Origin: a virus
IMG/VR virus record: IMGVR_UViG_3300045988_183972
Length of the DNA stretch: 64,000 nt
Direction: 5' to 3' (one strand)
Of this stretch, positions 8,895 through 59,552 are shown piece by piece; positions within the stretch are counted from its first letter, which is position 1, and each line of letters opens with the position of its first letter. A program made the translations under genes and the position numbers. The notes below the pieces were generated by a model. It was given only the letters and a program-made list of their open reading frames with translations, searched no databases and had not been told where the DNA came from.

Positions 8895-10493
8895 ATGAAT
8901 AATGTAGAAATAAAGAAATATGATGCTAAAATCAAGGAAATTGATAAAATAATAAACACATATTCTGAGAGTAAAAATTTAGGTATAAAGTTATACTATG
9001 TTCCTGAAATATATTCAGAAAATAAGATTGATTATATAGCAATAAAATCTAATAATGAGTTTTATAAAATTCCTACGATTAAATACAATGATAATCCATT
9101 GTATTTAATGAATGTAATTACAAGAGATTTATGTAATCTGGACTTATTAGAAGTCTTAACAGATGATAAAGTAATAGATGCAATCAAATCTATTTATAAA
9201 CAGGATATAACATTAAATGAAGCATTAAACAACAAAAAAATTGAAAGATTTATAACTCCTATTAAAGAAAGATTAGATGATGTTTTGGAACATATAACAT
9301 TACCTGCAAGAAGTAATAAGAAAGGTTTTTATGACAGAACAAAATTAGATGCAATAAAAAGATATGTTGCAGAAAATAGTAATTTTAAACCTGTTTATGA
9401 AAACGAATACTGTTTAATTTTTGGGAAAAAGATGCCAAGAAGTGATGAAAATATATTAATAAGCAGTCATTCTGATATTGTAAATACGATAACAAATGTA
9501 AACAGTTCTTATAAGAACGGATTTTATCACGGAACATATGATAATTTAGGTACTAATGCGGCAGCAGTATCTATTATGTGTATGAATGAAAATAACTTAT
9601 CAGATAATGTTTTTTTTGCTTTTACTGCTGAAGAAGAGACAGGTAGATGTTTAGGAGCAAAATCAGCTTATCAATTTATGGAAAGAAATTCAAAATATCC
9701 AACATTATATGTATCTTTAGATGTAACAGATGAAGGATATGATGATAATAGATTATGTTCAATAGAAGGATTACACGCTAACAATGATATTAAAAGTAAA
9801 ATCGCAGATAGTATGATGATAACTGAAGGAGAAGAGCAATCATTCTGTGTTATAAAAGCAAAACATAAAGATAGTTCTCCTTTTAATAAAGATTATATTG
9901 ATGGAAATTATACTGTTTTTGATGAAGGTGTTTATTATGGTCAGACTTTAAACCAAAATGCATTAAGCTTTTGTTTACCTACTGATGGAAGTATGCATAG
10001 TAATACAGGTTTAGATGTTAAAGATAGTATATTTACAGGATATATTTTATCGCTTGATACTTTTATACACCAATACACTAATACTAAAAACTTTGAAATT
10101 GAAGATATAAAAGATTATAAGGATTATCTTGTAAATAAAGCAAAAGAAACAAAGAAAGTCTATGCTTTTGCTAATCTTAATTATAGACCTGATTTTAGTT
10201 ATACGCTAGATGATTATTATGAAGAAGATGAAGATTTATATGCGGATTCTTTTAGTATTGCTGAATTATATGGAATTGATTTAGATGAAAAAGGAAAAAT
10301 ATCTTCAGATGATATACCATATGAATTAGAATCAACATTATCAGAACTTGCAGAAGGATATGGTGCAACTGAAATATATGAATATTTAGCAGATATGGAT
10401 TGTGAGTTTGGGGGAATTATACCTGAAGAAGTTTTAGTTCCGATTTTTAATAAATATCACGAACAGGAAGAGGAATTAGATTATACATCCTAA
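8895..10493 (+). CDS. protein with M20/M28/M42-type zinc metallopeptidase-like domain
   Basis: Start moved to ATG 8895 (RBS GAAAGGTAAAAAG); motifs SSHSDIV (HxD), GTYDNLGTNAAA (bridging Asp), TAEEETG (Glu-Glu) in the order typical of M20/M28/M42 peptidases; acidic C-terminal tail. Confidence 0.4.
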   Translation: MNNVEIKKYDAKIKEIDKIINTYSESKNLGIKLYYVPEIYSENKIDYIAIKSNNEFYKIPTIKYNDNPLYLMNVITRDLCNLDLLEVLTDDKVIDAIKSIYKQDITLNEALNNKKIERFITPIKERLDDVLEHITLPARSNKKGFYDRTKLDAIKRYVAENSNFKPVYENEYCLIFGKKMPRSDENILISSHSDIVNTITNVNSSYKNGFYHGTYDNLGTNAAAVSIMCMNENNLSDNVFFAFTAEEETGRCLGAKSAYQFMERNSKYPTLYVSLDVTDEGYDDNRLCSIEGLHANNDIKSKIADSMMITEGEEQSFCVIKAKHKDSSPFNKDYIDGNYTVFDEGVYYGQTLNQNALSFCLPTDGSMHSNTGLDVKDSIFTGYILSLDTFIHQYTNTKNFEIEDIKDYKDYLVNKAKETKKVYAFANLNYRPDFSYTLDDYYEEDEDLYADSFSIAELYGIDLDEKGKISSDDIPYELESTLSELAEGYGATEIYEYLADMDCEFGGIIPEEVLVPIFNKYHEQEEELDYTS

Positions 10494-10601
10494 TATAATA
10501 AAAAAACAATATATCTTATAAAAAATAATATTTTATAAGATATAAATAAAACACCTTAAATAATTTTAGACACCATTATTATTATTTGAGGTGATTTTTT
10601 T

Positions 10602-11468
10602 ATGAGAAAAATAATAAATAATTTTGTACAAATATCTATTCTGTTATGTTTTATTGTAATTTTTAGTTCAAATAAAATAAATGTATATGCTTCAGATGAT
10701 ATTCCAATAGTAACACTTGATGCTGGACACGATAGCTTTCATACAGGAGCAACAGCAAATGAATTATATGAAGAAAAATTAAATTTAATAATTACAAATT
10801 ATTGTAAAGATTATTTAGAAAAACATTCTAATATTATTGTGTATTTATCAAGGGATAATTTTACCTGTCCTTATCCAGACACACCATATAAAGATTGTAA
10901 TTATGAAAGGTTAATAAAAGCAAAAGAAGTAAATACAGACCTTTTTTATAGCATTCATTGTAATTATAGTCCACACGAATATATGAATGGAGCTAGTGTT
11001 ATAATTCCAAATACAAATTTTAAACCATATTTTTATGAAGAAGGAAATATATTAGCAAATATTATAAAAAATAATTATAGTAATTTAATTCCTGTTACAG
11101 AAATATATACAAGAAATTCAGATGAAGATGAAGAAACAATAGATAATTTCTATCCAGATGAAACAAGGGCTGATTATTATAATGTAAATAGAACAAGTAA
11201 ATATAATGATTTTTTAGGAATTATTGTTGAACACGGATTTCTTTCTAATACAAATAATGCAGAAATTTTAAAGAATACAGATATTTTAAAACAAATAGGT
11301 GAAGCTGATGCAAAGTCTATAATAGAGTATTTTAAAAATAAAGGATATGATTGTGAATTAGAATATATAGAACAAAAAACAACACCCGATATTGATAAAG
11401 TAAAAGATTTATTTATAAAAGAAAGATACAAAAAATTCAAATTTTTTATAGAATTTTTAAATAAATAA
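10602..11468 (+). CDS. secreted N-acetylmuramoyl-L-alanine amidase (Amidase_3 family)
   Basis: N-terminal signal-like hydrophobic segment; Amidase_3 signature DAGHDSFHTGATANELYEEKLNL, SIHCNYSPHEYMNGASVII, VEHGFLSN (Zn ligands His/Glu/His and catalytic Glu in correct order). Confidence 0.7.
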   Translation: MRKIINNFVQISILLCFIVIFSSNKINVYASDDIPIVTLDAGHDSFHTGATANELYEEKLNLIITNYCKDYLEKHSNIIVYLSRDNFTCPYPDTPYKDCNYERLIKAKEVNTDLFYSIHCNYSPHEYMNGASVIIPNTNFKPYFYEEGNILANIIKNNYSNLIPVTEIYTRNSDEDEETIDNFYPDETRADYYNVNRTSKYNDFLGIIVEHGFLSNTNNAEILKNTDILKQIGEADAKSIIEYFKNKGYDCELEYIEQKTTPDIDKVKDLFIKERYKKFKFFIEFLNK

Positions 11469-13554: not shown

Positions 13555-14325
13555 ATGTATTGGGAAAATATAGAAGAACAAGTATGGAATAATGCTGGTT
13601 TTGTAAATAGTAAAAAAATACAAGAGATTAGAAGTAAACAATTTAAAAATCCTGTTATTTATGTTGATATGGATGGTACATTGTTTCAATGGAATAGATT
13701 AAAAAGTAAAGAATACCCAGATGGTGTTACTTTAGAAATGGTTTATTCACCTGGTTATTTTAGAAATTTAAAACCTAATTTAGGTATTTTAGAATTAGTA
13801 AATGCTTTACACGATAAAGGATATGATATAAAGATAGCATCTAAATCTAGTTATACAGCTATAAAAGAAAAATATGATAGCTTAATGGAATATTTACCTT
13901 TTTTAAACAAAAATGATATTTATTTTATTCCTTTAAATGCAAATAAGTCAGATTTTCTTCCAAATATAAAATCTAATGATATTTTAATAGATGACTATAA
14001 TCCTAATTTAGATGAATTTAAAGGAAGTGTTATAAAATGTGTTACAGATATTAATACAATAAATCCTAAATACCCTTGGATTAAAAATAATGCTCCAGTT
14101 TATAAAAATATAGATAAAATAACTTGGACTTTAATAAGAGAATGGAAGTTTTCACAAAATTCAGAAAATCCTTTAAACCTTACAGATTTAAAATACATTT
14201 TTGATAAAAGTGTTATGTCTTTTGAAGATTTTTATAATATATGTAATGGTTTTAATATTAATTTAGATGAGTTTGCTTTTTTAAAAACAAAAAATGAAAA
14301 AGATGAAGAAGAAATAGAAATATAA
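13555..14325 (+). CDS. HAD-superfamily 5'(3')-deoxyribonucleotidase-like protein
   Basis: VIYVDMDGTLFQW (HAD motif I DxDGT), later LIDD (motif IV-like); RBS AAGGAGAGAAAAT. Confidence 0.5.
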   Translation: MYWENIEEQVWNNAGFVNSKKIQEIRSKQFKNPVIYVDMDGTLFQWNRLKSKEYPDGVTLEMVYSPGYFRNLKPNLGILELVNALHDKGYDIKIASKSSYTAIKEKYDSLMEYLPFLNKNDIYFIPLNANKSDFLPNIKSNDILIDDYNPNLDEFKGSVIKCVTDINTINPKYPWIKNNAPVYKNIDKITWTLIREWKFSQNSENPLNLTDLKYIFDKSVMSFEDFYNICNGFNINLDEFAFLKTKNEKDEEEIEI

Positions 14326-22013: not shown

Positions 22014-23129
22014 ATGGAAAATACAAATACATCTTTAACATTAGATGAAATAATAGAAAAGAACAGAAAAGATTTATTTTCAGAATTAAATGAATTCTTA
22101 GATAATGAAAAGATAACAGATATTGAATGGGATGGCGAACATTTATGGATAACAGAGTTAGGAAAAGGCTGTTATCCTGTTGATAAAAAATTATCTATAG
22201 ATTTTGTGAATAATTTAAGTATCAGATTATCAAATATAATGAAAACTAATTTTAATGCTTTAAACCCTATATTGGAAGCACATACAAAAGAATTAAGAAT
22301 ATCAATCTTTCACGAAAGCAGAACTGGGGAAAAATCTATAACTATTAGGAAAATTCCTACAAATATAAGATATAACCACGAAAAATTAGTAAAAGATAAT
22401 ACAATCCCAGAAGAATTATTAAACCTATTAGAAAATTGTGTTAAAGCACATTGTAATATAGTTGTTGGAGGAAGACCTCACGCAGGAAAAACAGAATTAG
22501 TTAAATACTTATCTAATTTTATACCAGCAAATGAGAAAGTAGTGACATTAGAGGATAATGCAGAAATCCATTATAGAGAAATACATCCTAATAGAAAGAG
22601 TGTATCATTTTTAGTTGATGATAAAGTAACATATTCAGATGCTATTAAGGCTTGTTTGAGACATAATGCTGATTGGTTACTATTATCTGAAGCAAGAGGA
22701 CCAGAGATTATTGAACTTCTTAATGCACTTAGTACAGGAAGTTATTGTATGACGACAGTACACGTAGATGGAGCTAAAGACATTCCTGATAGAATGTATA
22801 ATATGCTTAATAATAGTAGTATAAATGAAAGATTTATCAATAACATATATCGTTATATGGATGTAGGAATAATAATAAAAGCTGATAAAAAAGAAAACAG
22901 AATTATATCAGAAGTTGGATTTTTTAACAGAGCAAATGTTAAGAATGAAGATGGAGAATATGAAATGCAGAACATTTATACACCTTTTTATAATACATTT
23001 GAAGGGTTAAAAGATAAAGATAAGTTACCTATAAATATCCAAAGAGCATTTGTAAGAGAAAATATTAAAAATCCATTTGAAAAACCAGAAATTACTGATG
23101 AAATAAAGGAAGTTTCTGTAAATGGTTAA
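22014..23129 (+). CDS. secretion/pilus-assembly ATPase of the TadA/CpaF/VirB11 (T2SSE) family
   Basis: Walker A VVGGRPHAGKTELVKYL, Asp-box KVVTLEDNAEIHY, Walker B DWLLLSEARGPE, His-box GSYCMTTVHVDGAKDIPDRM in canonical order. Confidence 0.65.
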   Translation: MENTNTSLTLDEIIEKNRKDLFSELNEFLDNEKITDIEWDGEHLWITELGKGCYPVDKKLSIDFVNNLSIRLSNIMKTNFNALNPILEAHTKELRISIFHESRTGEKSITIRKIPTNIRYNHEKLVKDNTIPEELLNLLENCVKAHCNIVVGGRPHAGKTELVKYLSNFIPANEKVVTLEDNAEIHYREIHPNRKSVSFLVDDKVTYSDAIKACLRHNADWLLLSEARGPEIIELLNALSTGSYCMTTVHVDGAKDIPDRMYNMLNNSSINERFINNIYRYMDVGIIIKADKKENRIISEVGFFNRANVKNEDGEYEMQNIYTPFYNTFEGLKDKDKLPINIQRAFVRENIKNPFEKPEITDEIKEVSVNG

Positions 23130-26041: not shown

Positions 26042-27310
26042 ATGGAAAAAATAAAATATTCAGCTAGTGAAAAAAAGAATAGACATTTGTTATTTGAAAC
26101 TAATAAAAATTTATTTATTACAGGAGCAGGAGGTACAGGAAAATCTACTTTTCTAAATGAATTTATAGAAAAGAACCCTAATACAATAGTAACAGCTCCA
26201 ACAGGAATAGCGGCAGTAAATATAGGAGGAGTAACAACTTTTAATGCTTTTAGTATACCAATACCTTGTTTTGGAGCTACAACAAATAAACTGACTGAAG
26301 CAAAATTAAAGAAGATAATTATGGTTGATAATGTAATTATTGATGAAATAAGTATGTGCAGAGTAGATGCTTTTGTTTATATCACAAAGGTAATTAAAAA
26401 AGCTGAAAAGATAAAAGGTAAGAAGATAAGAATTATTGTTAGTGGGGATTTCTCACAGCTTCCTCCTGTAATTACAGATGAAGATGCTAAAATGTTAAAA
26501 AAATTTGGTTTTCATAAGTCTGGGTTGCCTTTTACTTGTAAAGAGTGGGAAAATTGTCATTTTACTACTATAGAGCTTACAGAAGTTAAAAGACAGGATA
26601 ATCTTGAATTTATAGAAAACTTAAATAAAGCCAGATTAGCAGATAAAAAATGTATAACATATTTTAATCAGTTTGTAACAGATGAAATTCCAGATGATTG
26701 TATTCATATATGTGGAACTAACGCAGAAAGTTCTAAACTTAATAAAGAATATTTGGACTCATTAGAGGGTATGCCATATGCGTATCAGGCAGTAAAACAA
26801 GGAAGAACTACAGGAGCATATGTAGATGATATTATTATTCTTAAAGATGGAGCAAATGTATATTTTACAGTCAATGATATATACGAGCATAAATATGTTA
26901 ATGGAACATTTGGAAAAATACATAAATGTTTTAATGACCATATAGAAGTAGAAGTTGATGAAGAAATAATAGATGTTTACCCACACAGATATTCGGTTTA
27001 TAATTATAAAATTATAAATGGAGTATTAAAGAAAGAAGAAATTGGTTCAGTTTTACAAATGCCTTTAAAATTAGCTAAAGCAATTACTGTGCATAAATCC
27101 CAAGGCAAAACTTTTAATAAAGAAGTGTTTACACCTAAAATATTCGCAGCAGGACAGGCTTATGTTGCATTAAGCAGAGTAAGAAATCCTGAAGGTTTAT
27201 TTTTAACAGAACCTTTACTTCCAGAACAATTAATGTCAGACAGAACAGTACTTAAATTTTATAAAAATAATTATAAATTTGAAAGTAATCGTAAAAAAAC
27301 AGAAAAATAA
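26042..27310 (+). CDS. PIF1/RecD-family (AAA_30) DNA helicase
   Basis: Walker A ITGAGGTGKSTFL, motif Ia VTAPTGIAAVNIGG, Walker B IIDEISMC, C-terminal AITVHKSQGKTF and GQAYVALSRVRNPEGLFL (UvrD_C_2-like). Confidence 0.7.
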   Translation: MEKIKYSASEKKNRHLLFETNKNLFITGAGGTGKSTFLNEFIEKNPNTIVTAPTGIAAVNIGGVTTFNAFSIPIPCFGATTNKLTEAKLKKIIMVDNVIIDEISMCRVDAFVYITKVIKKAEKIKGKKIRIIVSGDFSQLPPVITDEDAKMLKKFGFHKSGLPFTCKEWENCHFTTIELTEVKRQDNLEFIENLNKARLADKKCITYFNQFVTDEIPDDCIHICGTNAESSKLNKEYLDSLEGMPYAYQAVKQGRTTGAYVDDIIILKDGANVYFTVNDIYEHKYVNGTFGKIHKCFNDHIEVEVDEEIIDVYPHRYSVYNYKIINGVLKKEEIGSVLQMPLKLAKAITVHKSQGKTFNKEVFTPKIFAAGQAYVALSRVRNPEGLFLTEPLLPEQLMSDRTVLKFYKNNYKFESNRKKTEK

Positions 27311-27550: not shown

Positions 27551-28582
27551 TTACTCTAATTCATAATTACAATCATCATTATGAGTAATATTTATATCTA
27601 TAATATTGTTATTACAATTTTTTTTAGCTGTTTTTTGGTCTTGTAACAATTTTTTTGCTTTATATAAAAACGTAGGATTATTTTTAATTTGAGCTTTATT
27701 CATATTGTTAATTATATCATTAATTTCATTCATAGATAGTATAGTAATATCATATTTTTTACTAAAGCTATTGTTAGGTATAAAATTAGGATTGTATGTA
27801 TTATATTCTTGTGTTTCTAATATTTCCTGTTTCGTTTCTTTATTAAGATATTTTGATACTTCTTTTTCGTTAAGGGATTTTCCCTGATATAATGCTAATA
27901 TACATATATCATACATAATAGTAGCTTCTAAGTCATTAGCTGGCTTTATATGGTCATATATATTAAGATAACAAGTATCTATTAAAGTAAATATTTCTTT
28001 GTCAGATAAGGATATATTATATAATTCTCGAAAGTTTTGTAATTTAATTTGAACTATGTCATCATATTTTTCTGTTATTTTTAAAACATTTTCATAGGCA
28101 TAGTTAAAAGCTTCACGTTCTAATGAACATAAAACATAAAAACATAAAGCAATTTCTTTACTCTTTATATATAGATTGTTATAATCATTTATATATAAAT
28201 ATGCTTTTTTAGACTGTATATAAAATACATCATTAAATTGTATTATTTTGTTAAGTTTAAAAAACGAATTAGTTTCTATTAATTTATTTTGATGACTGTG
28301 ATATAATTCGTGATATAAGGTGTTATATAATACATAACAATTGTCATCTCTATTAGATGTTAAAAGGTCTGCATTAATTTTTATAATCTTATCATCATAA
28401 GAAAAAAATCCATTTATATCTGGAGAATTAAAGTTTTTAATAATAAGTTTAGAACAGTTATTTGGAATATTTTTCTTTATTTTATCAAAAAGGGAAAAAG
28501 TTATTTTTTCTTTACGATTAATAGATAATATTTTCCAATTTTTAGAAGTGAAATAATCTTCAAGCTTACGTTTAAAAAACAT
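27551..28582 (-). CDS. HExxH-motif protein (putative zincin-like metallopeptidase; ImmA/IrrE- or ArdC-C-terminal-like)
   Basis: 343 aa; TLYHELYHSHQNKL contains HELYH; no other recognisable domain. Confidence 0.35.
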   Translation of the reverse strand: MFFKRKLEDYFTSKNWKILSINRKEKITFSLFDKIKKNIPNNCSKLIIKNFNSPDINGFFSYDDKIIKINADLLTSNRDDNCYVLYNTLYHELYHSHQNKLIETNSFFKLNKIIQFNDVFYIQSKKAYLYINDYNNLYIKSKEIALCFYVLCSLEREAFNYAYENVLKITEKYDDIVQIKLQNFRELYNISLSDKEIFTLIDTCYLNIYDHIKPANDLEATIMYDICILALYQGKSLNEKEVSKYLNKETKQEILETQEYNTYNPNFIPNNSFSKKYDITILSMNEINDIINNMNKAQIKNNPTFLYKAKKLLQDQKTAKKNCNNNIIDINITHNDDCNYELE

Positions 28583-28594
28583 AATAGTTCTCCT

Positions 28595-28936
28595 TTATAC
28601 ATATAAATAAAAAAACGAATGTAAATATTTTTCTTTATCTTTGTAATTATTTTTACAATAATCATTAAAATAAGGCAAACACATTATAAAATCGTGAATT
28701 TGGTTAAAATTATAATCTGAATACATTATATCCCTAATAGATAATCCTTTCACCTTAATATCACTAATATTTTTATTATTTAGCCATTCATAAAAATTAG
28801 GAAGGCATTTATCTGGTATATATTCAGTTCTATTTTTTATAAGCCTTATGGCTTCATCTTCATCATAATCATATCCATCATCATAGGATTGTAATTTTAA
28901 TATCATTCTTTCTTTTAAATCTTTAGGTATGGTCAT
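28595..28936 (-). CDS. hypothetical protein (113 aa)
   Basis: ORF with AGGAGAAATAAAAATT upstream (minus strand). Confidence 0.4.
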   Translation of the reverse strand: MTIPKDLKERMILKLQSYDDGYDYDEDEAIRLIKNRTEYIPDKCLPNFYEWLNNKNISDIKVKGLSIRDIMYSDYNFNQIHDFIMCLPYFNDYCKNNYKDKEKYLHSFFYLYV

Positions 28937-29037
28937 AATTTTTATTTCTCCTTTTATTTTTTATTAAATTGTTTATATGTCTGGTATTATTTTTTCTGTA
29001 TTTTGTTATCATAATATCTTGATTAAAATATAAATAA

Positions 29038-29604
29038 TTACTTATTATTGATTTCCTTTTCTTTATTAAAAAATGCTAACCCTATACAAATACTGTCAGC
29101 AATATCGTCACTAACATCTATATCGTATATTTGTTTTACTAATTCGATAGCTCTATTTTTTAATTCTTTTCTTTTTAATTTTACTTTATTTTCTGAATTA
29201 GGTATTCCTACAGCTTTTCTCCAAACAGTAGGAGAGTAGAAATATATCAAACATCTCTTATGTTCTATTGAATAACTAAGAACTAAGCCTTGTATATGAC
29301 ATAACTTTTTATAAGCATATCCATCTTTTCCCATATAAGTATCTTCAATAACTATTACTTTAGGTTTATATTTTTTTAGATAAATATTAATTCCTTTTAT
29401 CATTTCAATTATTCGATAATCCATATTTTTCTTTTTTATTTCATTTTCCTCTTGTTTATTCATATTTTTATTTGTTTCATAAGGATTATCTGGTTTAATA
29501 TAAGTGTAATCTATAAGTTCTTTTGTATTATAATCAAAAACAGCAATACCAGTATTTGTTGTACTTCCATCTATGCTGATTAAATATTGCTTTATTTTAT
29601 TCAT
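29038..29604 (-). CDS. RuvC-family Holliday-junction resolvase-like nuclease
   Basis: ISIDGSTTNTGIAVFD (RuvC motif I), VIVIEDTYMG (catalytic Glu), C-terminal DVSDDIADSICIGLAF (DxxDA motif). Confidence 0.55.
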   Translation of the reverse strand: MNKIKQYLISIDGSTTNTGIAVFDYNTKELIDYTYIKPDNPYETNKNMNKQEENEIKKKNMDYRIIEMIKGINIYLKKYKPKVIVIEDTYMGKDGYAYKKLCHIQGLVLSYSIEHKRCLIYFYSPTVWRKAVGIPNSENKVKLKRKELKNRAIELVKQIYDIDVSDDIADSICIGLAFFNKEKEINNK

Positions 29605-32788: not shown

Positions 32789-32959
32789 TATTAAATATAT
32801 AATTTTGATTATAGGCACTAATTAATATTTTAGTTAGTGTCTATTTTTATATTTATATAAAAGATTGAAAATTTTTTTTACTTTAGAAAAATTAAAATAT
32901 ACTATTTTTTATCTTTTTTACACTATTATATAAAACAATAAAAATTGAGGATTTATATT

Positions 32960-33847
32960 ATGAAAGATTGGATAAAAAATATTCATACCATTGATAAGAC
33001 TTGTGTAAATTCTGAAGGGGAATATTATAAATATACAGAATTTAACAGAAAGCCAATATCTTTATATATCGTTGTAACAAGAGATTGTAATGCCAGATGT
33101 CCTTTTTGTGAATATAGAGGAAAACTAAAAAAAATCAATATCAATAAATTTGAAGAAATTTTTATTGAGTTAAGTAAATATTATGATATTACAACAGTTC
33201 ATTTTACAGGTGGAGAACCTACCTTAGAATTAGATACAATTAATGTATTAAGCAAAGTCATAAAAGAAATTTCTCCTTTAACTAAAACAAGCGTTAACAC
33301 CAATGGAATATTCTTAAATGAATTGTCTAATATAGATACAATAGATAATATTGCTTTAAGCAGACACACTATTATAGATAAAGATAATTTTAATATTTTT
33401 AGAACCAATAATATCGCTACATATGAAAATATTTATAATAATAATTATAAGGAAAAAATTCATTTAAGCTGTAATCTTATAAAAGGATATATAGATAGTA
33501 GTGATAAAATATTAGAATATCTTGAAATGGCATCTAAATTAGATATTAATGATGTAGGTTTTGTTAGTCTTATGCATATAAATAATTATTGTGAAGAAAA
33601 TTTTGTAGAATTTAGTAATATAATTCCAAAGGAAAAGGATTTTTTTAATAAAACAAGAGATTATAAATGTATTAATAATAAAAATATAATTACTTGCAAG
33701 TGTGAAAATTATCTTTATAGAGCTAAAAATATGAATTTTATATCAATGTATCATAGATATGCTATTAAGAATAATGAAAAAGCAGATTTTCTTGTTTATG
33801 AAAACAATCATTTAAAACAAGGCTTTAATGGAAATATATTAATATAA
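32960..33847 (+). CDS. radical SAM enzyme (MoaA/viperin-like fold; specific function unknown)
   Basis: Start moved to ATG 32960 (GAGGA RBS); CNARCPFC (Cx3Cx2C) followed by HFTGGEPTLE SAM-binding motif and NTNGIFL. Confidence 0.55.
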   Translation: MKDWIKNIHTIDKTCVNSEGEYYKYTEFNRKPISLYIVVTRDCNARCPFCEYRGKLKKININKFEEIFIELSKYYDITTVHFTGGEPTLELDTINVLSKVIKEISPLTKTSVNTNGIFLNELSNIDTIDNIALSRHTIIDKDNFNIFRTNNIATYENIYNNNYKEKIHLSCNLIKGYIDSSDKILEYLEMASKLDINDVGFVSLMHINNYCEENFVEFSNIIPKEKDFFNKTRDYKCINNKNIITCKCENYLYRAKNMNFISMYHRYAIKNNEKADFLVYENNHLKQGFNGNILI

Positions 33848-33862
33848 AATAAGGAGATAATA

Positions 33863-34201
33863 ATGAATAATATAAGAGAATATTTTTATGAGGTATATAA
33901 GAGAGATTGGATTAATACACATATATCCAATGAAAGATATATAGGGACTATGAATGAATATTATAAGGAAAAGAAAGATAATATAAATTATCCTGATTTT
34001 CCTTCATTTAAAGACTATATAGAAGAAAATGGTTTTGATTTTGGAGAAATTTATTGTAGTTATGATGAATTTTTGGATTTTGAATATCAACAGAAAAATT
34101 ATTGGAAAAGTTTAATTAATGATGAAGAGATTTATGGTGAATATTTAGAAGATTTAGAGATATTAAAAGAAGAAGAAAAAACGGATAATTTAGAAATATA
34201 G
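33863..34201 (+). CDS. hypothetical acidic protein (112 aa)
   Basis: AAGGAGATAATAATG; follows radical SAM gene. Confidence 0.4.
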   Translation: MNNIREYFYEVYKRDWINTHISNERYIGTMNEYYKEKKDNINYPDFPSFKDYIEENGFDFGEIYCSYDEFLDFEYQQKNYWKSLINDEEIYGEYLEDLEILKEEEKTDNLEI

Positions 34202-34213
34202 AAAGGAAAAGAT

Positions 34214-34426
34214 ATGGAAGAAAATGTAACAGAAGAAATGATAGACCTGTTAAAAAAAGTAGCTGATTTATGTTGCAAGGCAAGTGAAGAAGTTTATGAT
34301 GATGATAAAGAAAATGGAACAGCAAATATATTAAATTTATGTGATAAGTTACAGGAAGCTATAGATGAATATGTTTTAGATTATGACTGTAAAAAAATAT
34401 TAGAAAATGATGAATTAGAGTATTAA
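34214..34426 (+). CDS. small acidic Cys-containing protein (70 aa); has a frameshifted paralogue at 40252-40446
   Basis: GAAAGGAAAAGATATG; MEENVTEEMIDLLKKVADLCCKASEEVYDDDKENGTANILNLCDKLQEAIDEYVLDY. Confidence 0.4.
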   Translation: MEENVTEEMIDLLKKVADLCCKASEEVYDDDKENGTANILNLCDKLQEAIDEYVLDYDCKKILENDELEY

Positions 34427-34455: not shown

Positions 34456-34602
34456 ATGGAACAGATTATTAAAGAATTAAAAGAAGCAGGATATGATTAT
34501 GGAGTAGCTATTGCAACTAAAGCAGAAATTAAAGCTGGAGCTGCTTGTGGTCAATTAAGTTTAATAGTTGAAAAGAGTTCAGATAAAAATATGAATTTTT
34601 AA
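34456..34602 (+). CDS. 48-aa peptide matching the C-terminal catalytic-Cys segment of RlmN/Cfr (GYDYGVAIATKAEIKAGAACGQLSLIV)
   Basis: AAGGAGAAAAAAT RBS; ...GAACGQL... reproduces the RlmN C-terminal motif (SYGF..VRKTRGDDIDAACGQLAG) including the methyl-carrying Cys. Confidence 0.45.
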   Translation: MEQIIKELKEAGYDYGVAIATKAEIKAGAACGQLSLIVEKSSDKNMNF

Positions 34603-34617
34603 TATAAGGAGTCTAAT

Positions 34618-35424
34618 ATGAAACATAATTTAAAAACAATTTCATTTATGATAGCATCATTTAAAGATATTGTAAATACATTTGGGATGAATGAAAAATC
34701 AATAGCTTTTTTCAAGAAAAATATAGAAGGATTATCTGCTATAAGTCAGGTTACTCCATCAGATATCAATTTAATATATGATGTGTTAAATTTTAATGAT
34801 AAAAATATCAGTCCAGAAAAAAGAATTTCTTTTTTAAATGAATATGTAAAAGCAATAAACAAGGTTCATACCGTTAAGAATAAGGAAACAATTTTTTATA
34901 TTATTAATGATTTAAAGGATGCTAATGTAATTTCAGAAAAAACTAAAAGAAATGTACTAGAAACTTTAGATATAGATGAAACTCTTTATAAACAAAATTC
35001 AATTAAAGAAAATAATAATTTTGGAAATTATTCATTTAATAAAACTGAAATTGAGAAATATAATGAAATAATTAAAGGCAATAAAAATCTACATATAAAA
35101 ATCAAAAATGAAAATGAAAATGCTGTATGTTCTTGTGACAGACCTTATTACATCTATAAGCTGAAAAATTTTTTAGATATATTTGCTAATAGATATGAAG
35201 AAAATAATGCATTAAAAGCCTTAAAAGATGGAGATTTTATTATAGGACAAGAAGAGAGTTCTCCATCAGGAGACCCTTGTAGAGGCTGTAGAGGGTTTAT
35301 TACAACATTTAGAGAAGATACAAAGATTAAAGCCGAATTCTTAAAAATTAATTGGAATAAAATAATTACTGAATTGGATATTAATAATTACAAACACAAT
35401 GATGATTTTGATTATGATTATTAA
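34618..35424 (+). CDS. hypothetical protein (268 aa) located between the two RlmN/Cfr-like pieces
   Basis: AAGGAGTCTAATATG; C-terminal Cys cluster CSCDRP...GDPCRGCRGF. Confidence 0.45.
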   Translation: MKHNLKTISFMIASFKDIVNTFGMNEKSIAFFKKNIEGLSAISQVTPSDINLIYDVLNFNDKNISPEKRISFLNEYVKAINKVHTVKNKETIFYIINDLKDANVISEKTKRNVLETLDIDETLYKQNSIKENNNFGNYSFNKTEIEKYNEIIKGNKNLHIKIKNENENAVCSCDRPYYIYKLKNFLDIFANRYEENNALKALKDGDFIIGQEESSPSGDPCRGCRGFITTFREDTKIKAEFLKINWNKIITELDINNYKHNDDFDYDY

Positions 35425-35527
35425 TTAATAACATTAAAAACAGAGACTAAGTAAGATTATTTTAGTATCTTTTTTTAATGTCTAATGCACTATTATATTA
35501 TAAAGATAAAAAGGAGCTATTAAAAAG

Positions 35528-36325
35528 ATGAAAGAAGTAACAAGTAGAGAGTTTGCTAATGGAAAGGTATATATGTTAATGACTGATGATAACTATCCAA
35601 TAGAAACAACAGATACTTTTTTACCTTTCTATACAAAGAATTGTATTAATGAACACACGAATGAACTTAAAGAAGATGTGTTAGGTTCAAGAGAAGAAAG
35701 ATGGATGATTGGTGTTAGTTGTATGAGTGGTTGTCCTGTAAGATGCCAGTTTTGTAATACTGGAAAATTAAAAAGATATAGAAATCTATCTGCAAAAGAG
35801 ATATATGAACAGGTTGTTTTTATATTAGACAAGCATTCAGAGATAAAAGAGATTGATAGTAAGGAATTTAAGATTAATTATACAAGAATGGGAGAACCTT
35901 TTCTTAATATTGAAGCTGTAAAAGAAGCTATCACTCTTATAGATAATGAGCCAAGATTAAAGAATGTCAAGATACATCATTATATAAGCACAATAGGACT
36001 TAAAGGTAGTGATTTTAGTTTTATAAAGGATAATATTACTTTACAGATTAGTTTACATAGTCTTAATGAAGATAGAAGACACAATCTTATTCCTATCAAG
36101 GGTCTTATGAGTATAGAAGAATTAGGACAGATAAGAACTAATAGTAATTTAAAAACAACTATTAATATGACGCTTGTAAACACAAAAGACTTTGATATTG
36201 ATATTATGAAAAAGTATTTTGACCCTAAGTATTTTTTTATTAAGCTTAGTCCTATTAATGAGAATGAGGTTAGTAAGGAACATAATATGGGTAAAGGTAT
36301 TATTCATAGAGAAAATTTAATATAA
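35528..36325 (+). CDS. RlmN/Cfr-family radical SAM (rRNA adenine C2/C8 methyltransferase-like) core, lacking the C-terminal segment
   Basis: GVSCMSGCPVRCQFCNTGKLKRYRNLSAKEIYEQVVFI aligns with RlmN [38 protein letters not shown]; also YTRMGEPFLNIEAV (GMGEPLLN), ISLHSLNEDRRHNLIPI (AISLHAPNDEIRDEIVPI), KYFFIKLSPINENE (KINLIPWNPFPG). Confidence 0.6.
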   Translation: MKEVTSREFANGKVYMLMTDDNYPIETTDTFLPFYTKNCINEHTNELKEDVLGSREERWMIGVSCMSGCPVRCQFCNTGKLKRYRNLSAKEIYEQVVFILDKHSEIKEIDSKEFKINYTRMGEPFLNIEAVKEAITLIDNEPRLKNVKIHHYISTIGLKGSDFSFIKDNITLQISLHSLNEDRRHNLIPIKGLMSIEELGQIRTNSNLKTTINMTLVNTKDFDIDIMKKYFDPKYFFIKLSPINENEVSKEHNMGKGIIHRENLI

Positions 36326-36590
36326 CATTTTTTTATTATATCTTCTTAAGTTCTTATTTTTAGGATTTAAGAAGATATTTTTTTATATTCTTTTATTGTA
36401 TTCTATCCCATAAATAGGGTATAATTAATTATAAAAGATTGAATATGAATAAATATATATTAATGCATAAAAATATTGAAGTAGCTTTAATGGATTTAGA
36501 TGAAAATGATAGAAATGCAAAACCAATAAAATAGAAAATATTATTAATTTAGATTAAAAGTAAAAGAACTCTTGAAAAAAAGGGTTCTTT

Positions 36591-46678: not shown

Positions 46679-48045
46679 TTTACCGCAATCTCCGAAGCTT
46701 TAGCTTCGGGGTTAAGGTAACAAGATATTAGCCGACCTAAGTCAGCGGAAAGGAGAAATTGATATGATTAAAACCAATAGAGCTATTGTTTATAGATTGT
46801 ATCCAAATAAAAAGCAAGCAGAATTTTTTCAAAAGACTTTTGGATGTGTAAGATTTGTATATAATCAGATGCTTTCCGTTCAAGAAGAACGATATAAAAA
46901 TAATAAAAGTCATCTTAGTAAATTTGATATGAACTTTTATTGTAATCATAATCTTAAAACTGAATATACTTGGCTTAAAGAAATAGATAAGTTCGCTTTA
47001 ACAAATGCAATATATCACTTGGAAGATGGCTACCAAAGAATGTTTAAACATCTTGGAAAACATCCAAAGTATAAGAATAAGCATAAATCAAAGAAATCAT
47101 ATACTACAAATTTTACAAATAACAATATCGAAGTTGGAGAGAATTATATCAAGCTTCCAAAAGTCGGTAAAGTTAAAGCTAAAATCAGTCTTGATACAAG
47201 ATATTTACAAATCAAGTCCGCTACAATTACTCAAAACAGGGATGAAACCTATCAGGTATCTATTCTTTTTGAGATTATAGAAGAAGAACCAGTACAAGTC
47301 ATTCCTACTAAAAATAATACAACTGGTTTAGATTATAAATCAGATGGGTTGTATGTAAGTGATACAGGAGTAGTTGCCAATATGCCACATTATTACAAGC
47401 AGTCTGCGAATAGCCTTGCTAAACAGCAAAGAAAACTTCGTAATAAAGTAATTGGCAGTAAAAATTATTATAAACAGCAGAAAAAGGTCGCTAAAATTCA
47501 TAAACACATAGTAAATCAGAGAAAAGATTATTTACATAAACAATCTACTGCGATAGCCAAACAGTATGCTTATGTATGTGTAGAGAGTCTTAATATGAGA
47601 GCTATATCAAATAAGGGTTTTGGTAATGGTAAAGCTACATTGGATAATGGTTATGGAATGTTTTTAGATATGTTAGCTTATAAATTACAGGAACGAGGTG
47701 GAAAGCTTGTTAAAGTAGATAAATGGTTTCCATCAAGTCAGATATGTAATTGCTGTAGATTCCAAAATCCAATATTGAAAGACCTAACTATTAGGCATTG
47801 GAATTGTCCTAATTGTGGAACAACTAATATAGATAGGGATATAAATGCAGCTAAAAATATAAAACAAGAAGGATTAAGATTGTTAGGTATAGCTTAGTAA
47901 TCTAAAACATGGTAGGTATGGACGATACCGAACCTAAAAGTCTGTAGACATTGTGGGAAAACTACCAAAAGGTGTGATAATAACTGTAATGGATGAAGCA
48001 GGAATCCCTTGAGCTTTAGCTTTGGGGAGCGTCAAAGTAGAAGGA
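46679..48045 (+). mobile_element. IS200/IS605-family insertion sequence carrying only tnpB (IS1341-like), with related subterminal hairpins at both ends
   Basis: Left end tccgaagctttagcttcgggg hairpin (46689-46708), right end cttgagctttagctttgggg (48010-48029); TnpB ORF between; GC-richer than flanks. Confidence 0.65.
46764..47897 (+). CDS. tnpB: TnpB (OrfB) RNA-guided nuclease of IS200/IS605 family
   Basis: N-terminal AIVYRLYPNKKQAEFFQKTFGCVRFVYNQ, RuvC-like motifs, C-terminal zinc finger CNCCRFQNP...WNCPNCGTTNIDRDINAAKNI. Confidence 0.8.
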   Translation: MIKTNRAIVYRLYPNKKQAEFFQKTFGCVRFVYNQMLSVQEERYKNNKSHLSKFDMNFYCNHNLKTEYTWLKEIDKFALTNAIYHLEDGYQRMFKHLGKHPKYKNKHKSKKSYTTNFTNNNIEVGENYIKLPKVGKVKAKISLDTRYLQIKSATITQNRDETYQVSILFEIIEEEPVQVIPTKNNTTGLDYKSDGLYVSDTGVVANMPHYYKQSANSLAKQQRKLRNKVIGSKNYYKQQKKVAKIHKHIVNQRKDYLHKQSTAIAKQYAYVCVESLNMRAISNKGFGNGKATLDNGYGMFLDMLAYKLQERGGKLVKVDKWFPSSQICNCCRFQNPILKDLTIRHWNCPNCGTTNIDRDINAAKNIKQEGLRLLGIA

Positions 48046-56879: not shown

Positions 56880-59552
56880 ATGAATAGTAATAATATTGTT
56901 GAATGTATGTTTTTTGGTCAGAGATTTAATGAAAAGCCTTCTAAAATGGAAACAGGATATATACAGAAGAATATAACGATTGCAAACATAACAATAGAAA
57001 ATTTAGCAGAAGCTCTTGTTAATGGTGCTTCTTTTAGACCAAGCATATTAATAGGGGGACGTACAAAAGATGATTGGAAAAGACAACAGCTTTTTGGTTT
57101 AGATTTTGATAGTGGTGTTTCTATTGATGCATCATACAATAAAGCTATATCATTAGGTCTTATTCCTGTATTTATGTATACTACATTTAGTCATACTTCA
57201 GAACATCATAAATATAGAATGATTTTTTGTACCGACAAAGTCATTACAGATATGGCTTTAAGAGACAAATTCCAAGCTACTCTTATGGGTTTAATGGGAG
57301 ATATAGATAAAGTATGTTTTAACAGAGATAGATTATTTTTTGGAGGAAAAGGTAAAGAAATACTTTTTCCTAATTTCAATGCAAAACTTAATGTAGAAGA
57401 AATTATAGATAAGTATTGGAAAGATGAATTTGAAGTATATATAAAAGGACAAACTAAGTCTAAAAAAAGAAAATTAAAGAAAACAACAGAACCTAAACAA
57501 AACAATTCATTTACTGTTATAAATTATGAGCCAGATATTGATGAAATACCTTATGCAAGTTATCCAGTAAGATGTGTTACCTTAGGTAATTTACGTTGCC
57601 TAAAAAAATATTATGATAGTATTATTTGGGCAGAAGGAATGCACAGAGAAAGATTTATTTTTATTTATTATAACTGTGTTAAATTACTTTATGGTTCAGA
57701 TAGAGCTTATAAAGAATGTATAGAATTAAACAATGGTATGGAAGAGCCGTTAACAGCATATGAATTAAAATCTGCAATAATACATACAGATGAACATATG
57801 GAAAATAAAGATTGGTATAGAAAAGCATTACACGGAGATGGATGTTTTATTTTTAGACCTGAAACAATTATTTCAGATAAATGGTTAAATATAGATGAAG
57901 AAACAGCTATAAAATGTGGATTTTTTGATAATAAAATAAGAAAAGAAAAAATAGAAGAAAATAAAAAGTTAGATACTCTTAGAGATAAAGAAGTAGCTAG
58001 ATTATATTTATCTGGATTAGGTTATAAAAAAATAGTTAATAGCCTTTCTAAAGAATATAAATGTAGTGCATCTACAGTTAAAAGAACTATAGAGAGATTA
58101 GGAATAAAAGAAAGAAATATTTCTTTAGAAGATATAGAGTTTAATGAAAATAAGAAGTATGCCAAACATTCGTTTGGGGTGCCGAAAGTGACTAAACTAG
58201 AAAAAGAAGTTTTTAAGGTAAAGTCTAAAAAAGAAATATCAGATAATAAAGAAGATAATATAGTATTTTTAAATGAAGACTGTAAGAGATTATATGAAAC
58301 GTCTAAAAATGCAGGGTCAGAAAGTAATATTAATGAACAGGAGATAGCTATTGAAACAATATTAAATAATCCTACAGTTAATTACTGTTTAAAAGGTAAA
58401 GCTGGTACAGGTAAAAGTTATTGTATTAATAGTTTATTACAGAGATTAACAGAAGAAGAAAGAAAAAAGACATTAGTAGTAGCTCCAACAGGAGTAGCTG
58501 CTTCTAATATTACATATACAACAGCTCATACAATACATTCAATATTTGAGTTATATACATTCGTACAAAGACAAGATGAACATATTAGGATACCTAAGAT
58601 TTTATTAAATGTAGATAGAATTATCATTGATGAAATAGGTATGGTAAGAAAAGATGTATTTAATCAGTTAGTACGAATTATTAATAATGCTCAAAAATTA
58701 ACAGGTAATAAAATACAGTTAATATTAGCAGGAGATTTTGGACAGATTTCCCCTGTTGTTACAAAAGAAGATAAAACTGTAATGGATATTTATTACAAGG
58801 GAAGTGAAGATAAATATTTCTGTTTTGATAGTCCTTTATGGGATAGTTTAGATATTCATACAATAGTATTAAGAAATAATCATAGACATAATAATGATGA
58901 TTGCGATGAATTACAGAAAGAATTTATTAATATATGTGATGAGATTAAATTTGGAGCTATATCAGGATTAAAATGGTTAAATAATAACTTAAAACATACT
59001 GCTATAGAAGATGGAATATATCTTTGTGCTAATAATAAACAGGTTGATGTTTATAATAAAATGTATACAGATAAATTCACAGATAAAAAGACATATAATG
59101 CTATATGTTTTGGAGTAACAGAAGGAAGAAAATTACCAGTAAAACTTAGTTTAGAATTAGCAGTAGGTATGAAAATAATGACTCTTATTAATACAAAGAA
59201 ATATAAGAATGGTAGTTTAGGAGTAATAACAAAGCTTTATAAGGATAAGATTAAAGTAAAGTTAGATAATACAGGAAAAGAGGTTACTGTAAAATATACT
59301 GAATTTAAGATAAATGAAGAAACTGATGAAGTATTATATCAGTTACCAATAGCTATAGCATATGCTATTACTGTAAATAAAGCACAAGGATTAACATTAG
59401 AGAAAGTAAATATTGTTCCTGGCTTTTTTGCGGCAGGACAATTATATACAGCTATAACAAGAATAAAGAATGTACATAATATTAGTATTATTGGTGAATT
59501 AAAAGAAACTGATTTAGTTGTAGATACAAGAGCATTAAGTTTTATTGCTTAA
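56880..59552 (+). CDS. replication protein: AEP-type primase(-polymerase)-like N-domain, central HTH, C-terminal PIF1/RecD-like helicase
   Basis: N-terminal LFGLDFD (DxD), central LYLSGLGYKKIVNSLSKEYKCSASTVKRTIERLGI (sigma-r4/LuxR-like HTH), helicase motifs LKGKAGTGKSYCI, VVAPTGVAASNI, IIIDEIGMV, AITVNKAQGLTL; GAGAGGAGTATCTGCTAATG RBS. Confidence 0.6.
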   Translation: MNSNNIVECMFFGQRFNEKPSKMETGYIQKNITIANITIENLAEALVNGASFRPSILIGGRTKDDWKRQQLFGLDFDSGVSIDASYNKAISLGLIPVFMYTTFSHTSEHHKYRMIFCTDKVITDMALRDKFQATLMGLMGDIDKVCFNRDRLFFGGKGKEILFPNFNAKLNVEEIIDKYWKDEFEVYIKGQTKSKKRKLKKTTEPKQNNSFTVINYEPDIDEIPYASYPVRCVTLGNLRCLKKYYDSIIWAEGMHRERFIFIYYNCVKLLYGSDRAYKECIELNNGMEEPLTAYELKSAIIHTDEHMENKDWYRKALHGDGCFIFRPETIISDKWLNIDEETAIKCGFFDNKIRKEKIEENKKLDTLRDKEVARLYLSGLGYKKIVNSLSKEYKCSASTVKRTIERLGIKERNISLEDIEFNENKKYAKHSFGVPKVTKLEKEVFKVKSKKEISDNKEDNIVFLNEDCKRLYETSKNAGSESNINEQEIAIETILNNPTVNYCLKGKAGTGKSYCINSLLQRLTEEERKKTLVVAPTGVAASNITYTTAHTIHSIFELYTFVQRQDEHIRIPKILLNVDRIIIDEIGMVRKDVFNQLVRIINNAQKLTGNKIQLILAGDFGQISPVVTKEDKTVMDIYYKGSEDKYFCFDSPLWDSLDIHTIVLRNNHRHNNDDCDELQKEFINICDEIKFGAISGLKWLNNNLKHTAIEDGIYLCANNKQVDVYNKMYTDKFTDKKTYNAICFGVTEGRKLPVKLSLELAVGMKIMTLINTKKYKNGSLGVITKLYKDKIKVKLDNTGKEVTVKYTEFKINEETDEVLYQLPIAIAYAITVNKAQGLTLEKVNIVPGFFAAGQLYTAITRIKNVHNISIIGELKETDLVVDTRALSFIA
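58168..58218 (+). repeat. copy 3 of the conserved ~50-nt motif, embedded in the primase-helicase gene linker
   Basis: cgtttggggtgccgaaagtgactaaactagaaaaagaagtttttaagg. Confidence 0.5.

Follow-up and report, generated by a model that had tools for sequence, protein, structure and literature searches.

A putative two-piece radical SAM enzyme of the RlmN/Cfr lineage encoded by phages and giant mobile elements

Results

A radical SAM core gene that ends short of the RlmN C terminus

The IMG/VR virus record IMGVR_UViG_3300045988_183972 was analyzed as a single stretch of 64,000 nucleotides (nt), here called the window. On its plus strand, a gene encodes a 265-amino-acid (aa) radical S-adenosylmethionine (SAM) protein (the core) with similarity to the methylases RlmN and Cfr. 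Upstream of it lies a 48-aa open reading frame (ORF; the peptide) corresponding to the C-terminal segment that the core lacks, and a 268-aa ORF is situated between the two (Table 1). The core and the peptide had been placed at the same coordinates, with a 268-aa gene between them, in an original prediction made from the sequence alone, and all three ORFs were recovered here on the plus strand.

In profile searches of the core, as proposed along with the original prediction, Radical_SAM (PF04055) was matched as the sole Pfam domain (E = 3.2e-9), and the best NCBIfam match was the RlmN model TIGR00048 (E = 6.8e-23; model positions 86 to 244 of 355), followed by the Cfr models. None of the curated RlmN/Cfr cutoffs was reached, as the core scored 81.2 bits with TIGR00048 (cutoff, 290), 56.3 bits with TIGR04432 (cutoff, 550), and 60.7 bits with NF000424 (cutoff, 530). 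By sequence, the closest solved structures were those of RlmN (6fz6; 1.3e-13) and Cfr (9p0p; 4.7e-8). The cluster motif C69-x3-C73-x2-C76 aligned with C125/C129/C132 of RlmN, and the three cysteines of this radical SAM CX3CX2C signature were invariant in 32 of 32 family sequences. The alignment further placed the stop codon of the core where RlmN has ∼55 residues to go. At 90% clustering the core family comprised ∼1990 clusters, and the best 120 were almost all 262 to 270 aa in length. The core is thus an RlmN/Cfr-like radical SAM protein that ends ∼50 aa early, and the Pfam, NCBIfam, and PDB sequence matches together with the alignment confirmed what had originally been predicted at this position.

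The missing C-terminal segment is encoded by a separate peptide gene

Searched alone, the 48-aa ORF had no match in Pfam, NCBIfam, PHROGs, or PADLOC, and a hidden Markov model search with the peptide profile against the whole PDB returned nothing relevant. Since these null results reflect a profile that is too short for such searches, targeted alignment with hhalign was needed. A profile of 26 orthologous peptides aligned with residues 327 to 361 of Escherichia coli RlmN, spanning Cys355 (E = 2.9e-4; hhalign probability, 40%), and with the C terminus of a fused relative, P0307 (residues 284 to 316 of 347; E = 7.6e-8; probability, 94.5%). The concatenated core-plus-peptide profile was collinear with residues 111 to 365 of E. 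coli RlmN across the junction (E = 4e-18; probability, 99%). Core-peptide concatenates likewise aligned collinearly with both E. coli RlmN and the fused phage relative, with the break falling just before the C-terminal helix, strand, and Cys355 loop of RlmN. The alignments to RlmN and P0307 and the collinearity of the concatenate bore out the earlier assignment of the missing AACGQL/Cys segment to this ORF. Several peptide ORFs of 41 to 64 aa had been labeled "adenine C2-methylase RlmN" by the independent pipeline of the Joint Genome Institute (JGI), and a search with the peptide profile retrieved 2847 relatives, of which the best 120 were 40 to 83 aa long.

In class A radical SAM methylases, Cys355 of RlmN (Cys338 of Cfr) carries the methyl group (PMC9692996). 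An equivalent cysteine, aligned with RlmN C355, was present in 31 of 32 family members; in the window, this methyl-carrier position of the AACGQL motif is provided in trans, as Cys31 of the 48-aa ORF. Residues A30, C31, G32, and Q33 were invariant among the 26 peptides, and the AACGQL loop was the most conserved stretch. The peptides were nevertheless conserved from end to end, including the docking helix and strand, and showed no leader/variable-core pattern.

A Shine-Dalgarno sequence (AAGGAG) is located 7 nt 5' of the peptide ATG, and the 268-aa gene and the core each have a Shine-Dalgarno sequence of their own as well. Across 406 pairs of peptide genes, the mean proportion of synonymous differences (pS) was 0.83 and that of nonsynonymous differences (pN) 0.22, with a mean pN/pS of 0.27; between the window and a relative with 81% identity (L082), pN was 0.038 and pS 0.79. 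These results indicated that the peptide gene is real and under strong purifying selection.

Conservation of the split among related loci

Eighty-three related loci were fetched and dereplicated to 30 (core identity, ≤90%). A peptide homologue was present on the strand of the core in 82 of the 83 loci, and in these 82 as well as in the window, core and peptide were separate ORFs; the separate peptide genes measured 36 to 68 aa. After dereplication, a peptide was found in all 30 loci, core and peptide being the only universal genes, and their pairing is far beyond chance. The position of the peptide varied. In 13 loci it followed the core at a distance of ≤100 nt, and all three frames relative to the core were represented; in 15 it lay farther downstream, past other genes; and in 2, the window and L082, it was upstream. 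The upstream ("permuted") position is therefore a peculiarity of this lineage, the peptide being located downstream in most relatives. Nothing separated the two pieces in 13 loci, and other genes or long spacers did so in 17. In every locus, the core ended and the peptide began at identical points of the alignment. One contig (L012) carries a second core-like paralogue of 282 aa (9943-10791) ∼3 kb downstream of its core/peptide pair.

The same layout was encountered in phages. A DNA search found Kehishuvirus "tikkala," a crAss-like Bacteroides phage that carries both pieces within 840 bp: its 262-aa core is 61% identical to that of the window and ends at the same residue, and a 43-aa peptide ORF, 73% identical to the window peptide, follows 2 nt later in another frame. 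Moorella phage MTATph1 (44% identity) encodes a 274-aa core and a 40-aa ORF, and the FelixO1-like Pectobacterium phage Wc4 (35% identity) encodes a 291-aa core, an unrelated 92-aa ORF, and then the peptide ORF. In general, the core family is mainly phage borne (crAss-like phages, large T4-like or jumbo phages, FelixO1-like phages, and a Moorella phage), with hosts ranging from Bacteroides to Pectobacterium. A scan of species-representative genomes yielded 23 further loci, mainly in gut metagenome-assembled genomes and in Bacteroides congonensis, and all of them were split; apparent continuous core-peptide matches among these loci all contained stop codons between the pieces. No fused full-length member within the family was found among the 83 loci, the 23 genome loci, and the best core relatives. 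The split is the conserved norm of a large family of phages and giant mobile elements and would also be its ancestral state. A split or permuted version had originally been said not to be a described architecture; in agreement with this, neither such an architecture nor the family itself was found described in Pfam, NCBIfam, PHROGs, or PADLOC or in the openly searchable literature (subscription-only literature not covered).

Two explanations would deprive the split of functional meaning. The first, which the original prediction had listed as a rearranged pseudogene, is that a full-length rlmN- or cfr-like gene was recently broken and left inert fragments. It would account for the position of the C-terminal piece, 5' of the core and separated from it by another gene, and members of the family are indeed targets of mobile elements (P0242 contains an intein, L019 a GIY-YIG gene, and L120 a resolvase gene; see below). 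The break positions are identical in every locus, however, and the peptide is under purifying selection. Relatives with 98%, 90%, and 81% identity also share the gene order of the window, as do many independent metagenome contigs, and the 48-aa ORF was called in every case. Moreover, a search of the sequence 3' of the window core detected no degraded peptide gene (Smith-Waterman score, 22, versus 23.4 ± 3.0 for shuffled sequences), and a fused full-length family member from which the pieces might derive was not found. We therefore regard a pseudogene as very improbable, and this part of the original prediction did not hold.

The second explanation attributes the split to stop codon reassignment, programmed frameshifting, or assembly error. 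Stop codon recoding occurs in some huge and crAss-like phages, related contigs reach 200 to 668 kb, and in one locus (L011) the pieces are in frame with only two TGA codons between them. On the other hand, TAA terminates 18 of the 30 cores, the pieces are found in each of the three relative frames, and genes or long spacers lie between them in 17 of the 30 loci; the peptide is in another frame or nonadjacent in all loci but one. In the window itself, the peptide precedes the core, all of TAA, TAG, and TGA are used, and recoding hardly lengthens the ORFs. The same split is furthermore present in finished genomes of cultured phages. Recoding or frameshifting as the cause of the split was contradicted for all loci except L011, and we give almost no credence to an artifact.

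Predicted docking of the peptide on the core

The window core and peptide were modeled as one chain with AlphaFold2, yielding a mean predicted local distance difference test (pLDDT) score of 81.5 and a predicted template modeling (pTM) score of 0.84. Most of the core scored above 90, the peptide helix and strand scored 62 to 88, and the Cys loop scored below 50; the equivalent loop of RlmN is flexible (PMC9692996). With the peptide placed N-terminally, as in the gene order of the window, a helix at residues 2 to 10 (pLDDT, 86) and a DSSP-assigned strand at residues 14 to 17 (pLDDT, 73) were obtained. Since helix and strand were predicted in either chain order, docking of these elements on the core is predicted to be independent of chain connectivity.

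In a Foldseek search of the PDB, the RlmN structures 6fz6, 3rfa, and 5hr6/5hr7 ranked first (TM score, ∼0.67; E down to 1.5e-14), followed by Cfr (9p0p; 3e-9). The next neighbor, SuiB, had an E value of 4e-5 and was thus ∼4 orders of magnitude weaker. The first 32 residues of the model formed three beta-strands in place of the RlmN N-terminal helical domain. The beta-extension that precedes the barrel is kept in the family.

Fused relatives and selfish elements

An exhaustive profile search of 1.84 billion representatives was carried out for distant relatives. It revealed single-chain proteins in the natural order (P0307, P0320, P0317, P0364, P0301, and others), several of which aligned with the RlmN/Cfr models through the Cys motif, none reaching a curated cutoff. 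The P0307-type relatives share the truncated architecture without the RlmN N-terminal domain and keep the C-terminal Cys-Gly-Gln. Two unusual fusions were also found: a circularly permuted one (peptide-linker-core; P0245), which two contigs carry upstream of a further radical SAM gene, and a triple fusion of peptide, core, and a second radical SAM protein (P0260). Neither the P0307-type proteins nor the permuted and triple fusions have a cysteine at the position of RlmN Cys118. Stenotrophomonas phages ANB28 (XMQ95057.1; L086 2974-3933) and BUCTxx99 (L127 2474-3433) carry the same fused RlmN-like gene of 319 aa inside a tRNA gene cluster; the label "prohibitin family protein" on the BUCTxx99 homologue is apparently a misannotation.

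Selfish elements target this gene family. In P0242 (601 aa), an intein is inserted beside the CX3CX2C motif of a core homologue. A GIY-YIG endonuclease-like gene lies exactly between core and peptide in L019 (6789-7604), and in L120 a MerR/resolvase (serine recombinase) gene (2472-3122) separates the 268-aa gene from the core position, on a contig that is otherwise near-identical.

Transcription unit and accessory genes

The core and peptide genes of the window belong to a six-gene block, in the order rSAM-1, 112-aa ORF, 70-aa ORF, peptide, 268-aa ORF, and core (Table 1). Terminator-like hairpins were present only at the two ends of the block, with no plus-strand terminator-like site between them, which suggests a single transcription unit.

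Table 1. Coordinates of the core, the peptide, and further features of the window
Feature	Position	Strand	Basis or remarks
Radical SAM catalytic core, 265 aa	35528-36325	+	Pfam, NCBIfam, PDB, and fold matches
48-aa peptide, equivalent to the RlmN C-terminal helix, beta-strand, and Cys355 loop (GAAC31GQL)	34456-34602	+	Co-occurrence, hhalign, selection
Terminator-like hairpin closing the upstream flotillin gene	32811-32844	+	15-pair stem, then T-run; 5' block boundary
rSAM-1, 300 aa from TTG (start probably ATG at 32960)	32945-33847	+	Pfam Radical_SAM, 2.7e-12
112-aa ORF, lineage-specific	33863-34201	+	Same position in near-identical contigs; not in L082 or L088
70-aa ORF, lineage-specific	34214-34426	+	Kept in L088 and near-identical contigs
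268-aa ORF between the pieces, lineage-restricted accessory gene	34618-35424	+	11 homologue clusters
Terminator-like hairpin, 13 nt past the core stop	36338-36378	+	17-pair stem, then T-run; 3' block boundary
Flotillin/SPFH protein, 522 aa	31220-32788	+	Band_7, 6e-23; FloT model, 2e-100
Third radical SAM protein, 268 aa	49312-50118	+	phrog_1802, 3.5e-13; versus rSAM-1, 3e-5
VirB4/TraG-like P-loop ATPase	772-3240		
Endolysin-like protein and HAD/polynucleotide-kinase-phosphatase-like protein	10602-11468 and 13555-14325		phrog_435 (6e-15); phrog_420 and phrog_415
VirB11-like T2SSE ATPase	22014-23129		
PIF1-like helicase	26042-27310		
Minus-strand island	27551-29604	-	GC and AT skew flip
TnpB (IS605 OrfB/Cas12f-like)	46764-47897		
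Dda-like helicase	56880-59552		
Thg1-like tRNA-His guanylyltransferase	61786-62676	+	phrog_4717, E = 7.8e-83

The first gene, rSAM-1, encodes a protein with the motif CNARCPFC that matched MoaA models (2e-14, far below the cutoff) and viperin-like PDB chains (∼1e-5), so it appears to be distantly MoaA/viperin-like. Its orthologues adjoin the core/peptide pair in 10 of the 30 dereplicated loci, and another small radical SAM gene (rSAM-2) together with a 148-aa class I methyltransferase-like ORF was found in 6. Altogether, 14 loci had at least one accessory radical SAM gene and 16 had none, which leaves core and peptide as the minimal unit. The 112-aa ORF had no match in Pfam, NCBIfam, PHROGs, or PADLOC, and the 70-aa ORF had no family match. 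As originally described, a 268-aa gene intervenes between the two pieces in the window. Its product matched nothing in Pfam, NCBIfam, PHROGs, PADLOC, or the PDB. With occurrences in 3 of 30 loci (the window, L082, and L002), always alongside rSAM-1, it is not a universal partner. Frequent neighbors in the related loci were phage NAD salvage genes and genes for a macro domain protein and an NAD-dependent ligase, as is typical of large phages.

Two neighboring candidates were rejected as parts of the module. A flotillin/SPFH gene lies directly upstream of the block, and an SPFH gene (L001 2382-3599) also occurs two genes upstream of the core in Kehishuvirus. A terminator-like hairpin separates the flotillin gene from the block, however, and the association is confined to the window lineage and Kehishuvirus and is not among the recurrent clusters. 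A third radical SAM gene, 13 kb downstream of the block, and the 159-aa ORF upstream of it were considered as counterparts of the crAss-type rSAM-2/methyltransferase pair and turned out not to be orthologous to it.

tRNA genes were found within 6 kb of the module in 7 of 32 loci scanned, and a link of the module to tRNA is suggestive at best. In L014 (7898-12710), the pair abuts an array of 21 tRNA genes, L016 likewise abuts a large array, and in L072 tRNA genes at 5476-5549 and 6929-7009 flank the pair.

The element carrying the block

The window has a GC content of ∼25% and contains no tRNA genes; an Rfam scan of its whole length revealed neither riboswitches nor other structured RNAs. The encoded proteins include VirB4/TraG-like and VirB11-like ATPases, TnpB, PIF1- and Dda-like helicases, an endolysin-like protein, and a HAD/polynucleotide-kinase-phosphatase-like protein, and no capsid or terminase gene was recognized among the ORFs tested. 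A Thg1-like tRNA 5'-end repair/editing enzyme is also encoded, which shows that the element invests in RNA maintenance. Genes on the minus strand are restricted to a single island in the otherwise all-plus 64 kb, where both GC and AT skew flip; the syntenic 188-aa ORF of L088 has a RuvC domain. Identical or near-identical genes were found on contigs of 200 to 668 kb. Together with the gene content, this suggests that the replicon is a giant plasmid-like mobile element or a huge phage of an uncultured low-GC gut organism rather than a typical clostridial resistance plasmid.

Discussion

A proposed two-subunit enzyme

On the evidence presented above, we consider it fairly likely that the products of the two ORFs are subunits that together form one functional class A radical SAM enzyme of the RlmN/Cfr lineage. 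Of the options raised by the original prediction, a trans-complementing two-piece enzyme is the one that fits the conserved split, the purifying selection on the peptide, the separate ribosome binding sites, and the docking predicted by AlphaFold2. In such an enzyme, the 265-aa core would bind a [4Fe-4S] cluster via C69/C73/C76, as well as SAM. The separately translated peptide would dock by its helix and strand at the site of the RlmN C-terminal extension and thereby bring the flexible loop with the invariant Cys31, the counterpart of RlmN Cys355, to the active site. By analogy to RlmN and Cfr, one SAM would methylate Cys31, and a 5'-deoxyadenosyl radical generated from a second SAM would activate the methyl group, which would then attack a substrate sp2 carbon; an adenine in RNA is the most plausible substrate. 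Both the methyl transfer chemistry and the nucleic acid substrate are inferred only, by analogy; the substrate is probably a nucleic acid.

Several observations weigh against this proposal or limit it. Substrate and reaction are deduced from a distant homology, with 81 bits against the RlmN cutoff of 290. Two residues that matter in RlmN are replaced throughout. Cys118 (Cys105 of Cfr) is indispensable for resolving the covalent enzyme-RNA cross-link, and Met176 of RlmN stabilizes the cysteinyl radical (PMC9692996). The Cys118 column is occupied by glycine in 32 of 32 family members (Gly62 in the window), and the Met176 position is an invariant threonine in the same 32 members, so that canonical turnover is not guaranteed. 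The N-terminal helical domain is absent as well, since alignments begin at RlmN residue ∼86 to 111. In RlmN, the N-terminal domain contacts RNA. The loss of this domain and of the resolving cysteine weakens the case for methyl transfer. The AlphaFold2 models were built as single chains, the peptide part lacked alignment depth, and docking was deduced from pLDDT and DSSP only. Finally, two loci deviate from the pattern: in L032, where the sequence downstream of the core is unlike that of close relatives, a peptide gene is absent within 6 kb, and the peptide of L071 (10138-10248) lacks the CGQL motif (…GAASIITEE).

Without the resolving cysteine, product release must use another base or differ from that of RlmN. 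No substitute cysteine is conserved among the 32 members; C65 of the window occurs in just 12 of them. It is in this context that a more radical reading has to be weighed, according to which the peptide is a consumable cosubstrate that ends up methylene-bridged to the target, or is itself a product resembling a ribosomally synthesized and posttranslationally modified peptide (RiPP), with the core taking a fresh peptide in each cycle. RlmN without Cys118 traps a covalent protein-RNA adduct (PMC9692996), and 5hr6/5hr7 are among the closest folds. The invariant glycine at this position, and a peptide that is always encoded by a separate gene, with variable placement and a consensus Shine-Dalgarno sequence, would also suit such a role. 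However, the fused relatives lack that cysteine too, and in them a tethered suicide adduct would inactivate the whole protein; a different resolving group is thus favored over a suicide adduct as the general mechanism. Conservation over the whole length of the peptide, without the leader/variable-core pattern of RiPPs, is a further argument against consumption, and the RiPP version is additionally at odds with a core that has no SPASM or RiPP recognition element (RRE) domain. We therefore judge this reading to be unlikely, and its specific form, in which the peptide is a diffusible, consumable methylene carrier left bridged to an RNA or DNA adenine or another target, to be rather improbable. 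If it were true, phages and giant elements would "peptide-tag" nucleic acids by means of a radical SAM core, and the split would allow the peptide to be supplied in stoichiometric excess.

The replaced residues could also point to a two-piece enzyme that no longer carries out methyl transfer. Here the cysteine might, for example, donate or accept a hydrogen atom or harbor a thiyl radical during some other radical reaction on a nucleotide or nucleic acid, perhaps in cooperation with the neighboring radical SAM protein. The changes of Cys118 to Gly and of Met176 to Thr are both invariant, the scores are far below the family cutoffs, 14 of 30 loci contain a second radical SAM gene (which in P0260 is joined to the core), and a methyltransferase-like ORF occurs with the core in 6 of 30. 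Yet the methyl-carrier motif AACGQL is invariant at A30, C31, G32, and Q33, exactly as in RlmN and Cfr, and in the 16 of 30 loci without an accessory radical SAM gene core and peptide must suffice. On balance, we see diverged chemistry as an unlikely alternative that still deserves some weight.

Should the proposed two-subunit enzyme be real, it would represent a natural fragment complementation of a class A methylase in which the methyl-carrying cysteine resides on a synthesizable peptide of ∼40 aa. Labeled, premethylated, or Cys-variant peptides could then be added in trans, which would provide a handle on ping-pong methyl transfer, on cross-link resolution, and on the way in which the reaction reaches completion when the "indispensable" second cysteine is absent. 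With thousands of 90%-identity clusters in dominant gut phages and elements, often beside a second radical SAM gene, a hidden modification of nucleic acids or nucleotides is possible. There is also a practical aspect to annotation: pipelines label both pieces "RlmN / 23S rRNA (adenine2503-C2)-methyltransferase," which on mobile elements can be misread as Cfr-like resistance.

Comparison with known systems

RlmN, the methylase that forms m2A2503 in 23S rRNA and m2A37 in tRNA (E. coli; 3RFA, 5HR6/5HR7), is the best match by sequence, profile, and fold. Common to both are the CX3CX2C, GEP, S-T-x-G, and SLH motifs, the beta-extension, and the C-terminal helix, strand, and AACGQL loop. Unlike in RlmN, the C-terminal module is a separate gene product, core and peptide amount to a total of 313 aa versus 384 aa for E. 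coli RlmN, and the genes are carried by phages and mobile elements instead of being a chromosomal housekeeping gene.

Cfr, the 23S rRNA A2503 C8-methyltransferase (9P0P), shares with the split family the class A radical SAM lineage and the C-terminal Cys motif. The original prediction had linked the locus to Cfr-type enzymes and to resistance against phenicols, lincosamides, oxazolidinones, pleuromutilins, and streptogramin A (PhLOPSA). Cfr models and the Cfr structure were indeed among the matches, and the window appears mobile, with conjugation-type ATPases and TnpB. Nonetheless, the core scored 56 to 61 bits with the Cfr models, whose cutoffs are 468 to 550, and Cfr was a weaker match than RlmN in every test. 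The family has neither the N-terminal domain nor an equivalent of Cys105/Cys118, where it has glycine, and it is overwhelmingly phage borne. A Cfr-type resistance role is unsupported by these sequence comparisons, and the chance that the locus encodes an A2503 C8-methyltransferase conferring PhLOPSA resistance seems very slim. The family rather forms a distinct branch of the RlmN/Cfr lineage that is orthologous to neither enzyme.

The phage RlmN-like proteins of the ANB28/P0311 type likewise lack the RlmN N-terminal domain and keep the Cys-Gly-Gln, and they too score below the curated cutoffs. They differ from the split family in being single chains and in retaining the Cys118 equivalent.

A pairing of a radical SAM gene with a short conserved peptide gene is also known from RiPP maturases and their precursors, such as SuiB/SuiA, and SuiB was the next structural neighbor after RlmN and Cfr. 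Different from RiPP maturases, the core showed neither a SPASM nor an RRE domain in the Pfam scan. The peptide, for its part, is the homologue of a structural segment integral to RlmN, and relatives carry it fused to the enzyme, so the pair does not have the makeup of a maturase and its precursor.

The closest parallel for the gene architecture is provided by phage genes in pieces. Phage nrdA is reportedly split by the insertion of a homing endonuclease, with the fragments reassembling into an active ribonucleotide reductase. As in that case, one ancestral enzyme is represented by two separately translated ORFs that would need to reassemble, and selfish elements occur at the locus; the two ORFs are collinear with RlmN and the fused relatives, the peptide is under purifying selection, and each ORF has its own ribosome binding site. 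In contrast to nrdA, the split described here is family-wide and ancient instead of being confined to a single lineage, one of the pieces comprises only ∼40 aa and contains the catalytic residue, and the pieces are reordered or several genes apart. Most loci also have no endonuclease between the pieces: a GIY-YIG gene does occupy this place in L019, whereas 13 of 30 loci have nothing there and the intervening gene of the window has no nuclease signature. By analogy, the origin of the split may resemble that of phage genes in pieces created by mobile endonucleases.

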